A stretch of DNA of 64,000 nucleotides from a virus. The position numbers and the translations under genes are program-made. The DNA is taken from positions 1 through 64,000 of IMG/VR virus record IMGVR_UViG_3300032282_002092. One strand, 5' to 3'. Every line of letters begins with the position of its first letter. The first letter of the stretch is position 1. The notes under the pieces are model-generated. The model ran no database searches. It was not told where the DNA came from and saw only the letters and a program-made list of their open reading frames with translations. Shown in pieces: positions 5,032-55,038 of this stretch.

Positions 5032-5573
5032 CAGACGTTCGGGTCTGCTGTGCGATGGATGATTGCAAAACGTGAGCGGAGGGCTACCGCCCACTGGGTG
5101 CCGAATTTCTCAGGACTGACCTGTCCCGAGATGATCGTGATGAGTCCCTCCTTGGTTCGCTTATCTATATATGGAAGTACGAACTTCTTGAAGAACTCTG
5201 AGTCAGTTTCCTCAAACACGTCATCGATCCAAGTCAAGGGAGCAGACCATAGCGTCTCAAAGAACAGGTCCAACGTCATCCAGTCCTGCCATACGGCAAA
5301 ATCCGAGCCGTTCTGACGGAGGATGTCCCGCTGAATCCATTCACGCCGAATCTTGGACAGCAACTCTGAGGCACGGACATACTGCGCCGGTCCCTTCGTC
5401 ACGATCTCTGCATGCTTGCGGAACTCGCTGCGTGCGTACTTTGCGGCCGTCGATGTGCCAGAGCAACGTGGACCCCAAACCCATAGGCCGGTTGGCCCTG
5501 AGGCTGTCATGGCATTAGAGACAAACTCGTCAACGGCTTCGCGTACCGCTGGGTTGAGTGTCACGACCCCCAT
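5031..5573 (-). CDS. DnaC/IstB-like helicase loader with degenerate P-loop
   Basis: GLWVWGPRCSGTS, YVRASELLSKIR, TWIDDV, RTKEGLITIIS; two genes upstream of DnaB. Confidence 0.7.
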   Translation of the reverse strand: MGVVTLNPAVREAVDEFVSNAMTASGPTGLWVWGPRCSGTSTAAKYARSEFRKHAEIVTKGPAQYVRASELLSKIRREWIQRDILRQNGSDFAVWQDWMTLDLFFETLWSAPLTWIDDVFEETDSEFFKKFVLPYIDKRTKEGLITIISGQVSPEKFGTQWAVALRSRFAIIHRTADPNV

Positions 5574-5860
5574 GTGGTGTCCCGATCAATGGCAGCGATG
5601 ATGGATGCCATCGTCTCCACAGTGTCGGGGTCCAAGTACGCAATGATCTGATCCATGCGGACCTGTCCCAGTTCTAGGAAGTTGTGGATGCAATGCAGGG
5701 TATCAGCCAACTCCAACCCGATATCAGCAGGGATGCAGACATCGAACAGGGCGGTCTTCAGGACATCAGAAATCCTCTGACGCTCTTCAGTCGTGGGACT
5801 GGGCACGGTGGAGTAATACGCCAGATCGACCGCTGCTTCAGTGAGTGTGTGGTTAGCCAT
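5561..5860 (-). CDS. hypothetical protein
   Basis: ATG-started ORF overlapping the start of the loader gene. Confidence 0.55.
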   Translation of the reverse strand: MANHTLTEAAVDLAYYSTVPSPTTEERQRISDVLKTALFDVCIPADIGLELADTLHCIHNFLELGQVRMDQIIAYLDPDTVETMASIIAAIDRDTTWGS

Positions 5861-5904
5861 AGGACTTGGAAGTTACACCCTTCCGCTTGGAATAGCAACT
5901 ACGG

Positions 5905-5947
5905 AAAAATAAGAACCCTCCTGCTGGGGGAAAGCAGGAGGGTTCTT
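5905..5947 (-). terminator. rho-independent terminator
   Basis: Perfect 15-bp stem AAGAACCCTCCTGCT/AGCAGGAGGGTTCTT followed by ATTTTT on the - strand. Confidence 0.85.
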
Positions 5948-5950
5948 GGC

Positions 5951-5978
5951 AGGGCAGTTTAGACACATGCTCAGGTGT
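5951..5978 (-). ncRNA. compact H-type pseudoknot motif, copy B
   Basis: ACAC CUGAGCAU GUGU CUAAAC UGCCCU; covaries with copy A at 6209-6237. Confidence 0.6.
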
Positions 5979-6082
5979 ACCGACTCTACGCCTAACGGGG
6001 TTACTGGGTTGTTCACCCCTCGTAGCACATGCGTCGGCTGGCACGCCATACAACCATACCATTGCCGGTATAGGTGCATGGG
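5979..6082 (-). ncRNA. putative structured RNA (two stem-loop domains)
   Basis: CCAUGCA/UGUAUGG + AUACC/GGUAU hairpin; nested CCGAC/GUCGG, CUACG/CGUAG, GGGGU/ACCCC. Confidence 0.4.
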
Positions 6083-6085
6083 CAG

Positions 6086-6201
6086 TGGGTCGGGAGGGAA
6101 TCGAACCCTCAGTCTCGCAGGTAAACACAGTTCACGCTAGGAAACGCCGAGTGTGCCCATCCTAATCCTGCGACTAACGCCATGCCATCTAGCGCCGCCC
6201 C
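6086..6201 (-). ncRNA. tRNA-like RNA with a 45-nt insert in place of the anticodon loop
   Basis: Acceptor GGGGCGG/CCGACCC-A (one mismatch), D-arm CGCUA/UGGCG with GG in the loop, stem UCGCAGG/CCUGCGA, T-arm GAGGG-UUCGAUU-CCCUC. Confidence 0.75.
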
Positions 6202-6208
6202 TTGTGAT

Positions 6209-6237
6209 AGGGCAGTTTAGCGACATGCCCTAGGTCG
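6209..6237 (-). ncRNA. compact H-type pseudoknot motif, copy A
   Basis: CGAC CUAGGGCAU GUCG CUAAAC UGCCCU: P1 CGAC/GUCG, P2 AGGGCA/UGCCCU. Confidence 0.65.
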
Positions 6238-6243
6238 GTACGG

Positions 6244-6561
6244 TCAGGAGGAGGGCTGGGTCGTGACTCGCACGTAGAGCACGATGACCGGGCCGTTCAG
6301 GCCAGCCCAAGTGCCGTCGTCCTCAGTGCGGACGGCCGTCTCCCAGTTGAGGTTGTCCTGCTTGGCGTACCGACGGATGCTCTGAGCCAGAGCGCTGAGG
6401 CGGTTCCGCTCCTTCTTGTCGGAGGCCGCACGGACGGTCCAGACAATCCACTCGCCGGGGTTATCGGCGGCGATCAGTGCCTGCTTGGCACGGGGACGGC
6501 CTCGCCCCGAACGGACGGGGGTGGGAGGGGTTCGGAAGATTACGTCGGGAGTGTTCATCAC
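6244..6561 (-). CDS. small basic protein, putative nucleic-acid binding
   Basis: AT-hook-like RGRPR, NPGEW motif, GC3-rich codons; GTGA overlap with the upstream gene. Confidence 0.65.
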   Translation of the reverse strand: MMNTPDVIFRTPPTPVRSGRGRPRAKQALIAADNPGEWIVWTVRAASDKKERNRLSALAQSIRRYAKQDNLNWETAVRTEDDGTWAGLNGPVIVLYVRVTTQPSS

Positions 6562-7019
6562 ACTTTCCTTTCCTTGGCTTGTAGCCGTTCAAGTAGTGAA
6601 CTCACTTTATCGCTACCTACTAAAGGTTGCAACCTATTCTTGGAAAAATATTTCGTGAAGGCTTTCCATGCCGCTTGACCGGGCTGAAGAACAACATTCC
6701 CGTGTTCAAGGTCCGACATGAATCTGGCGACGATAGCCAGAACACCCTCCACGGTGGACATACCGTGATTAAACACCTTCTCGTTCAGGTATGAACTGAA
6801 CGGGACCTTGTCCACCGATACGTACATCACGTACTCAGGCCGCTTCTGTACCAGTGTTTCCCACTGCTCCTGAAACGATGCAATGACAATGGTGGAAGGC
6901 TTGCGGTGACGTACTGGCTTTGGCTGGTCGTCTGTTCCCCCACCGTCGTACGTGATCTTCTCCTTGCGCTTCAAGTACGGTGCCTTCTCTTTGGCTTCTG
7001 GATCTTGCCCAAAATGCAC
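6558..7019 (-). CDS. hypothetical protein (replication region)
   Basis: AGGAG RBS before GTG at 7019; the longer ORF from 7226 runs through low-complexity G/C DNA. Confidence 0.6.
   Translation of the reverse strand: MHFGQDPEAKEKAPYLKRKEKITYDGGGTDDQPKPVRHRKPSTIVIASFQEQWETLVQKRPEYVMYVSVDKVPFSSYLNEKVFNHGMSTVEGVLAIVARFMSDLEHGNVVLQPGQAAWKAFTKYFSKNRLQPLVGSDKVSSLLERLQAKERKV

Positions 7020-31492: not shown

Positions 31493-31509
<17 letters not shown>
30913..31509 (+). CDS. class I SAM-dependent methyltransferase
   Basis: [28 protein letters not shown]. Confidence 0.88.
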
Positions 31510-34237
<2,728 letters not shown>

Positions 34238-54952: not shown

Positions 54953-55034
54953 GCCCGAATGGCGAAATAGGCAAACGCAGGGGACTTAAAATCCCCCGTC
55001 TAACGACTTGTGGGTTCGATCCCCACTTCGGGCA
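54953..55034 (+). tRNA. tRNA-Leu (anticodon UAA)
   Basis: Acceptor GCCCGAA/TTCGGGC-A, anticodon arm GGGGA-CTTAAAA-TCCCC, long variable arm GTC/GAC, T-arm GTGGG-TTCGATC-CCCAC; CCA not encoded. Confidence 0.95.
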
Positions 55035-55038
55035 CTGA

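Follow-up and report, generated by a model that had tools for sequence, protein, structure and literature searches.

The window, our name for the whole stretch of DNA analysed here, comprises the first 64,000 nucleotides (nt) of an IMG/VR virus record (IMGVR_UViG_3300032282_002092) that is 73,457 bases long, is estimated to be 76% complete and has a G+C content of about 53%. On its minus strand, upstream of the replication genes and between open reading frames (ORFs) at 6244-6561 and 5561-5860, lies a 116-nt gene for an RNA derived from transfer RNA (tRNA). The body of the RNA is of the tRNA(UAG) type, and a hairpin interrupts it exactly between positions 38 and 39 (or, equivalently, 37 and 38). 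A single homolog occurs in L285, a phage contig that is otherwise unrelated, and two copies of a small motif flank the gene in the window (Table 1). It is nearly certain that the gene descends from a tRNA and encodes a structured RNA under selection. Our tentative reading is that its product is a stable, unspliced tRNA-like RNA.

Table 1. Positions of the tRNA-like RNA gene, its parts and its flanking elements in the window
Feature	Position	Strand	Remarks
tRNA-derived RNA gene, 116 nt	6086..6201	-	G1=6201, discriminator A73=6086; no encoded CCA; homolog at L285:4880-4995
Acceptor stem, 5' strand, GGGGCGG	6195..6201	-	G4 (6198) mismatched with A69; pair 6:67 is G-C here, U-A in L285
D arm, CUAG / AUGGCAUGGCG / UUAG	6174..6192	-	preceded by C8 (non-canonical) and G9; position 14 is A here, U in L285
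Anticodon stem, 5' strand, UCGCAGG	6167..6173	-	7 base pairs (bp) with 6115-6121; invariant in L285
7-nt bulge AUUAGGA, former anticodon loop	6160..6166	-	U33, anticodon UAG, G37, A38; identical in L285
38-nt hairpin insert	6122..6159	-	8-bp UGGGCACA/UGUGUUUA, 4x4 internal loop CUCG/GAAC, 5-bp GCGUU/AGCGU, loop UCCU
Anticodon stem, 3' strand, CCUGCGA	6115..6121	-	from sequence reading and minimum-free-energy fold
T arm, GAGGG-UUCGAUU-CCCUC	6094..6110	-	canonical T loop
Acceptor stem, 3' strand, CCGACCC, and A73	6086..6093	-	together with the T arm, identical to tRNA-Lys genes
Motif copy A, CGA-CCUA-GGGCA-UG-UCG-CU-AAAC-UGCCC	6209..6237	-	starts 7 nt after the low end (6244) of the upstream ORF; ends 7 nt before G1
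Motif copy B, ACA-CCU-GAGCA-UG-UGU-CU-AAAC-UGCCC	5952..5978	-	107 nt downstream of A73
Intrinsic-terminator-like hairpin, 15 bp, loop of 7, then U tract	5903..5947	-	likely 3' end of the transcription unit

The cloverleaf elements listed in the initial annotation, namely a T arm, a D arm with GG, an acceptor stem with one G-A mismatch and a discriminator A, are all present on the minus strand. They are joined by 2 nt after the acceptor stem, 1 nt at position 26 and a 5-nt variable loop, (A)GACU, and the D loop has 11 nt. The minimum-free-energy (MFE) fold reproduces the 7-bp stem that the annotation described as closing 45 nt with nested helices. These 45 nt, enclosed by an anticodon stem of 6-7 bp, consist of the bulge AUUAGGA and the 38-nt hairpin, whose two helices are both recovered in the fold; a 7-nt anticodon loop arises only once the 38 nt are removed. 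The folding energy of the RNA alone is unremarkable (z = -1.05, with 24 of 200 shuffles folding as well). When the T arm and the 3' acceptor strand were held fixed, the full cloverleaf geometry (at least 6 of 7 acceptor pairs, a 4-bp D stem with a GG loop, a 5-bp anticodon stem and canonical spacing) appeared in only 5 of 20,000 dinucleotide shuffles of the upstream 170 nt, and the cloverleaf is therefore unlikely to have arisen by chance. The T-arm pattern occurs three times on the two strands of the window: in this RNA, in a real tRNA-Leu and within an ORF.

Standard detectors overlook genes of this kind. ARAGORN made no call at the feature at default settings or in its transfer-messenger RNA (tmRNA) mode, and Rfam gave no match at gathering thresholds and only a 17-nt T-arm fragment at E<=10; this is the outcome of a check that had been proposed when the gene was first noticed. 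The T arm is also all that the Rfam family beta_tmRNA matches (12.8 bits vs 84). The intron mode of ARAGORN picks up the feature only at a relaxed threshold (ps80). We gave that call no weight because the same threshold makes 159 calls in 73 kilobases (kb). When long introns were allowed, ARAGORN preferred a spurious 652-nt "intron", which was not used as evidence.

The homolog comes from a 38.6-kb record that is estimated to be 18% complete, and the G+C content at its locus is 44%. It was the only locus found by an exact 20-mer scan, while an exact 29-mer scan returned 0 loci. A gapped-pattern scan (anticodon stem and bulge, a variable gap, then stem) returned at least 116 loci; among the 116 matches listed, six have T-arm-like sequence downstream and one, L285, is a true homolog. 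Over 9 kb, the window and the L285 phage share a single blastn match of 145 nt at 85.5% identity, and tblastx matches only the RNA. Similarity begins in the upstream motif and ends 2 nt past A73.

The two copies differ at 14 of 116 positions, 12 of them paired and two unpaired (D-loop positions 14 and 15). Three pairs changed on both sides and kept Watson-Crick pairing: acceptor pair 6:67 and, in the insert helix, one C-G to U-A and one A-U to U-A. At three further pairs, a one-sided change turned G.U into G-C or U-A, and pairing was lost at one pair only in each copy. Overall, 97.1% of pair cells are paired, and this value falls to 37-49% when partners are slid by 1-3 columns. Both MFE folds contain the same insert structure, and all 19 unpaired insert bases are identical (19/19). 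The initial annotation would have been contradicted by homologs that look like decaying ordinary tRNAs with random insertions. Instead, in this comparison of two sequences, the sole homolog keeps the insert by compensatory changes.

The core of the tRNA body is non-canonical. Both copies have C8, position 14 is A in the window vs U in L285, and each copy carries one acceptor mismatch in a different place, G4.A69 in the window and A3.C70 in L285. These features, together with a membership of two and absence from relatives, would fit a recently disabled gene in which a palindromic insertion killed a tRNA(UAG) whose relic now rides with a mobile motif cassette. However, 12 of the 14 differences fall in helices at the cost of one pair per copy, three are double compensatory changes, similarity has sharp boundaries at the ends of the RNA, and the RNA has been retained in two unrelated, compact phage genomes. 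We therefore regard a relic as improbable. The same irregularities (C8, the unconserved position 14 and the shifting acceptor mismatch) also weigh against a working decoder.

Is the hairpin removed from the transcript? Several observations weigh against an RNA that keeps it. The hairpin occupies the place at which introns canonically interrupt tRNAs. The bulge, with U33, UAG, G36-G37 and A38, has the textbook form of an anticodon loop, and specifically that of a CUN-reading tRNA-Leu. When the hairpin was deleted in silico, ARAGORN at default called a 78-nt tRNA(UAG) in both copies (2/2). The stretch UCCUA of the insert is complementary to the anticodon and can pair with UAGGA of the bulge; both stretches are identical in the two homologs and thus without variation. 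In eukaryotic pre-tRNAs, the anticodon pairs with the intron, as UAGGA/UCCUA could here. A decoding tRNA(UAG) would also make sense because each phage has another tRNA for an A-ending codon (Leu-UAA in the window phage; Lys-UUU in L285, 91 nt downstream of the tRNA-like RNA) and uses CUA, at 6.4% of Leu codons in the window phage and 9.2% in the L285 phage. The closest cultured relatives of the window phage infect Streptomyces, in which CUA codons are rare. Finally, the observed covariation was reached by 60 of 500 shuffles in a comparison of only two sequences at 88% identity, so that the invariance of the loops is weak evidence.

Apart from the shuffle result, these points would fit an intron-bearing tRNA(UAG) gene whose 38-nt hairpin is cut at its base, with the ends rejoined by host or phage enzymes; the product would be a 78-nt class I tRNA reading CUA and perhaps other CUN codons. 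This explanation is possible, with about one chance in three by our reckoning, and a difficulty is that no mechanism of excision is known, the enzymes that would be needed being not yet known for bacterial tRNAs. Consistent with the earlier judgement that the insert is too small for a group I intron, its 38 nt lie far below the group I size of about 200 nt or more, contain no P1-P9 core and have no Rfam intron match. A bulge-helix-bulge (at the splice sites, two bulges of 3 nt with 4 bp between them) could not be drawn by hand: there is a 7-nt bulge on the 5' side and none on the 3' side, where the junction is continuously paired in both MFE folds, and the only 4-bp helix in the window that could serve as the central one, UAGG/UUUA, has no counterpart in L285. 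The tRNA body has a short variable loop unlike that of bacterial tRNA-Leu, in addition to C8 and the acceptor mismatch, and the unpaired bases of the insert are invariant, which is not needed of a spacer.

The gene content of the record speaks to the same question. Profile searches of the 73-kb record found no splicing endonuclease, RtcB or RNA ligase (PF01974, PF01139, PF09414), and no AAA_33 kinase, PolyA_pol/CCA enzyme or tyrosine integrase; a search with PF09511 was uninformative, as its control gave no match. Because the record is 76% complete, missing splicing genes could lie beyond it, which is a further point against retention of the hairpin. In its most novel form, an excisable insert would be a new kind of intron, short, structured and protein-dependent (or dependent on a host nuclease and ligase), that is excised exactly at its base from a phage tRNA(UAG) to leave a decoding tRNA. 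We think such an intron rather unlikely. If it exists, the insert would possibly keep the anticodon masked until processing.

The 3' part of the window copy has a recognizable relative. Its 25 nt that span the T arm, the 3' acceptor strand and A73 coincide with tRNA-Lys genes in 21 of 21 exact matches: 15/15 in 13 bacterial contigs, from Gammaproteobacteria, delta/Haliangiales metagenome-assembled genomes (MAGs) and Patescibacteria, and 6/6 in viral contigs. The 5' acceptor strand of tRNA-Lys, GGGUCGG, is one base apart from GGGGCGG in the window, and that base is the one that makes G4.A69. Such identity is what an attP-type remnant would show, in which the 3' part of a host tRNA-Lys gene is kept for site-specific integration. 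Yet a complete 5' half pairs with the 3' half, the 73 kb contain no tyrosine integrase, and L285 has the same fold with a different acceptor sequence (GGAACUG/CAGUCCC); this reading is close to refuted. Since the L285 acceptor differs, Lys-likeness is not a family trait. For the same reason a decoy for a nuclease that cuts the tRNA-Lys anticodon was dropped, and the broader suggestion of an anticodon-nuclease decoy, made when the RNA was first described, finds no specific support.

Could the insert encode a peptide? The initial annotation saw no tag ORF, and here it needs correction: the insert does hold a 7-codon ORF, MGTLGVS (window 6137-6160 on the minus strand, AUG..UAG), which starts at A38 (6160) and ends at 6137, although it is weak evidence for translation. 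The ORF is present in both copies, the three differences within its 24 nt are all synonymous (3/3, including UAG to UAA), and the acceptor helix is irregular at 3:70 or 4:69 in both copies. The ORF could be translated or serve as a tag template in a peptide-coding RNA or in a minimal tmRNA-like RNA, the latter being another of the suggested identities, and mini-tmRNA genes do occur in distant relatives of the window phage. Other features of tmRNA are nonetheless missing. As had been noted, there is no G3.U70 pair (G3-C70 in the window, A3.C70 in L285); a D stem is present, unlike in tmRNA, and tmRNA families in Rfam match nothing beyond the 17-nt T arm. The start codon AUG is paired within the 8-bp helix and directly adjoins AGGA, and the three synonymous changes are the same ones that keep the helix, with a rough chance estimate of about 0.05. 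Moreover, 116 nt is too short for the ring of tmRNA, and MGTLGVS lacks the alanine-rich C-terminal ending typical of tmRNA tags. We consider a coding function very improbable. An 8-mer in common with E. coli tmRNA upstream of the resume codon was also dropped, since by our estimate about 0.6 such matches would arise by chance.

The mini-tmRNA genes themselves, at L076:11043-11126 and L081:10954-11035, are 82-84 nt long and lie beside tRNAs; their tRNA-like domain contains G3.U70, and a tag region is missing. On the Rfam tmRNA model RF00023 (gathering 47) they reach 70.9 and 67.1 bits, and they receive no call from ARAGORN; similar sequences lie near position 9000 of L067 and near 10760 of L073.

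The flanking motif occurs far beyond this locus. In the 73-kb record, its 20-nt repeat has just two occurrences, one on each side of the tRNA-like RNA, and the terminator hairpin directly follows copy B. An exact degenerate scan found at least 120 loci (L299-L418) with at least 135 distinct instances, whose consensus is n3n2n1-CCU-GAGCA-YG-n1'n2'n3'-NN-AAAC-UGCUC. Among the instances listed, the first helix (P1) pairs at -1:N1 and -2:N2 in 135/135 and at -3:N3 in 112/135, against shuffled means of 52-62, and variants of the second helix (P2) covary (AAGCA/UGCUU, GGACA/UGUCC, AGACA/UGUCU, GAACA/UGUUC); in copy A of the window, GGGCA/UGCCC, all five positions are paired. Because both helices covary, we read the motif as an H-type pseudoknot RNA. 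It precedes tRNA genes by a few nt, or a Shine-Dalgarno (SD) sequence and AUG by 15-30 nt. L285 has five copies within 2.2 kb (2927, 4533, 4620, 4850, 5059), of which one precedes the tRNA-like RNA and one a canonical tRNA-Lys. Cultured SIO1-type roseophages carry the motif too, Streptomyces phage GiJojo lacks it, and a search of Rfam gave no match.

What might the motif do? A sigma-70 promoter was rejected, as 5500-6700 contains 0 promoter-like sites. A theta ribozyme, of the type resembling that of hepatitis delta virus, was rejected by placement: theta ribozymes are described as positioned no more than 5 nt from the tRNA, at the site of cleavage (PMC10879173). A pistol ribozyme was rejected by its architecture, which is described as three stems plus a pseudoknot (PMC4604425). 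Candidate roles are those of a ribozyme, a regulatory RNA or a processing signal; we infer a signal for RNA processing or stability. Copy A starts so close to the upstream ORF (7 nt) that there is little room for a separate promoter. The unit would run from motif A through the tRNA-like RNA and a spacer of 107 nt to motif B and the terminator, and would be cotranscribed with the upstream genes. This whole 351-nt unit folds well below shuffles (z = -5.2), largely due to the terminator. The spacer (5979-6085 on the minus strand) is unrelated to the 62-nt spacer in L285, and this region may hold a second small RNA.

How widespread is the tRNA-like RNA? It is missing from the whole records of six IMG/VR relatives, including a 107-kb genome rated 100% complete. 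No homolog was found by blastn, nhmmer, a descriptor or ARAGORN in 160 DnaB-anchored syntenic loci, 80 viral and 80 from metagenomes, in which the best DnaB identities were 61% and 50%, respectively. Against cultured phages, blastn returned T-arm matches only, in 17 records. The model R1 finds only L285 in 200 loci (1.8 megabases; L002-L202 not included), its other matches being tRNA-sized; it did not find the RNA in 50 whole motif-bearing phage records or in the records of eight relatives, and in GiJojo it matches only four tRNA-sized stretches. The idea that such inserts are common was dropped, as the "insert-bearing" L224 and L254 returned by the descriptor are an ordinary tRNA-Thr and tRNA-Leu. 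A single DNA sequencing run, which may be the source sample, is listed as containing the stretch, and no RNA run is listed. A literature search confined to abstracts returned no description of the tRNA-like RNA or of the pseudoknot motif. The RNA is thus a sporadic accessory gene in two unrelated phages, a distribution that fits transfer as a small cassette.

Other unusual tRNA genes were seen during these searches. On another phage contig, L271:7973-8104 (minus strand) is a 132-nt tRNA-like gene with a Leu-like 5' part and an encoded CCA, in which a 7-bp stem enclosing about 53 nt takes the place of the anticodon arm; it scores 33.1 bits on the Rfam tRNA model (gathering 29) and is not called by ARAGORN. 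The bacterial MAG contigs L085 and L087 and the viral contigs L177-L182 carry dense arrays, with 14-28 tRNA genes packed into a few kb and several of these genes having unusual D arms; the two MAG contigs may be phage or prophage DNA that was binned with bacteria.

The ORFs of the window lie nearly all on the minus strand. Matches to PHROG and Pfam identify structural genes (tail sheath, baseplate wedge, collagen-like tail fibre, major head protein, portal and large terminase) and replication genes (an SNF2 helicase, a DnaG-type primase, a DnaB-like helicase and a DnaC-like loader), and strongly expressed genes have AAGGAG-type ribosome binding sites. Judged by these genes, the virus is a tailed bacteriophage. 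The nearest cultured phages by tblastn are Streptomyces phages of the BRock/GiJojo group, with identities of 56.7% for the major capsid protein (across 89% of its length) and 31-33% for DnaB, and an actinobacterium is probably the host. The sole canonical tRNA of the window, Leu(UAA) at 54953-55035 on the plus strand, runs opposite to the flanking minus-strand genes; its gene does not encode CCA, and the pseudoknot motif does not precede it. The gene for the collagen-like tail fibre (31493-34237, minus strand, 914 amino acids) coincides with two extremes of the window, in local GC skew (-0.198, the strongest) and in G+C (58%, the highest).

No relatives of the two ORFs that flank the tRNA-like RNA were found among the viral contigs searched. 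In the closest relatives of the window phage, iteron-like repeats such as GTGACAACCACGTTGTCA lie within an ORF that precedes the helicase loader (L003:4360-4470; L004 and L005:4390-4480) and are probably a replication origin. The matching place in the window holds two small ORFs and the tRNA-like RNA.

The RNA resembles several known classes of molecule in part. With ordinary class I tRNA genes of bacteria and phages it shares the cloverleaf, the canonical T loop, A73 and AUUAGGA with U33 and G37, and ordinary phage tRNAs occur in the same genomes or adjacent to it, behind the same upstream motif; it departs from them in the 38-nt hairpin between positions 38 and 39, C8, the acceptor mismatch and the 11-nt D loop. 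The position and size range of the insert and its anticodon-complementary stretch recall intron-containing pre-tRNAs of archaea and eukaryotes, which have a canonical intron at 37/38. Unlike these, it has no drawable bulge-helix-bulge and no splicing endonuclease in its record, and the virus has DnaB, a DnaG-type primase and SD-led genes of bacterial type. Group I introns of bacterial and phage tRNA genes likewise interrupt the anticodon loop, although at roughly 200 nt or more as opposed to 38 nt. As in tmRNA, including the mini-tmRNAs of L076 and L081, a tRNA-like acceptor and T domain is joined to a non-tRNA domain and is phage-encoded beside tRNAs; unlike tmRNA, it has a D stem and no G3.U70, and the mini-tmRNAs score 67-71 bits on RF00023, whereas this RNA does not.

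Two further comparisons concern stable RNAs with added structure. In YrlA, the T4 stable RNAs species 1 and 2 and engineered tRNA scaffolds, a tRNA body has its anticodon arm replaced or extended. Here too the tRNA body would ensure processing and stability, but the RNA matches none of them by sequence or model, and its ends are open as in a true tRNA, whereas YrlA is permuted; the YrlA model (RF02553) has no match in the window and gives 16.9 bits vs 69 on L285, in an alignment that spans two genes. In the intervening sequences of 23S rRNA, RNase III removes an extra hairpin without re-ligation. The tRNA-like RNA similarly has an extra hairpin in a stable-RNA helix, and its irregular arm of about 24 bp-equivalents resembles RNase III signals. 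We are aware of no tRNA from which a hairpin is removed in this way, and decoding would fail with a nick in the anticodon loop.

Both readings proposed in the initial annotation still stand, that of a tRNA mimic and that of a tRNA whose insert is excised, the mimic-like one being the likelier. We favour an unspliced tRNA-like RNA because no excision route is known or encoded in the record, the core is non-canonical and the loops of the insert are invariant. On this tentative account, the cassette formed by the pseudoknot motif and the RNA would be a mobile accessory in at least two unrelated tailed phages, and the RNA would be transcribed with, or just after, the upstream genes on the coding strand. 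The minihelix of acceptor stem and T arm would let host RNase P cut the 5' end, and a 3' nuclease would trim to A73 before a CCA enzyme adds CCA. The stable product would be about 119 nt long and would owe its processing and stability to the tRNA body. The 38-nt hairpin would stack on the anticodon stem, so that AUUAGGA becomes a bulge on an arm of roughly 20 bp that could not enter the ribosomal A site. The invariant AUUAGGA, CUCG/GAAC and UCCU would form a working surface, which might bind, without being decoded, a protein or RNA that normally reads the anticodon arm of a tRNA, such as a synthetase, a nuclease or a modification enzyme.

Why would such an RNA matter? Current research into codon supply, and into how phages escape defence systems that cut tRNAs, centres on phage tRNAs and tRNA-like RNAs. 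Here, a covarying 38-nt domain is placed where archaeal and eukaryotic introns sit, in viruses with bacterial-looking genes. The pseudoknot motif, for its part, looks like a widespread phage signal for RNA processing or regulation and is worth its own study. If the insert is excised after all, bacteria or phages can remove such inserts, which would be new RNA-processing biology and the first non-group-I tRNA splicing in the bacterial world. If instead the RNA is a mimic, phages use the tRNA scaffold to make stable RNAs that imitate tRNAs without decoding, a natural counterpart of what has been engineered, and this RNA would be a candidate decoy or regulator.

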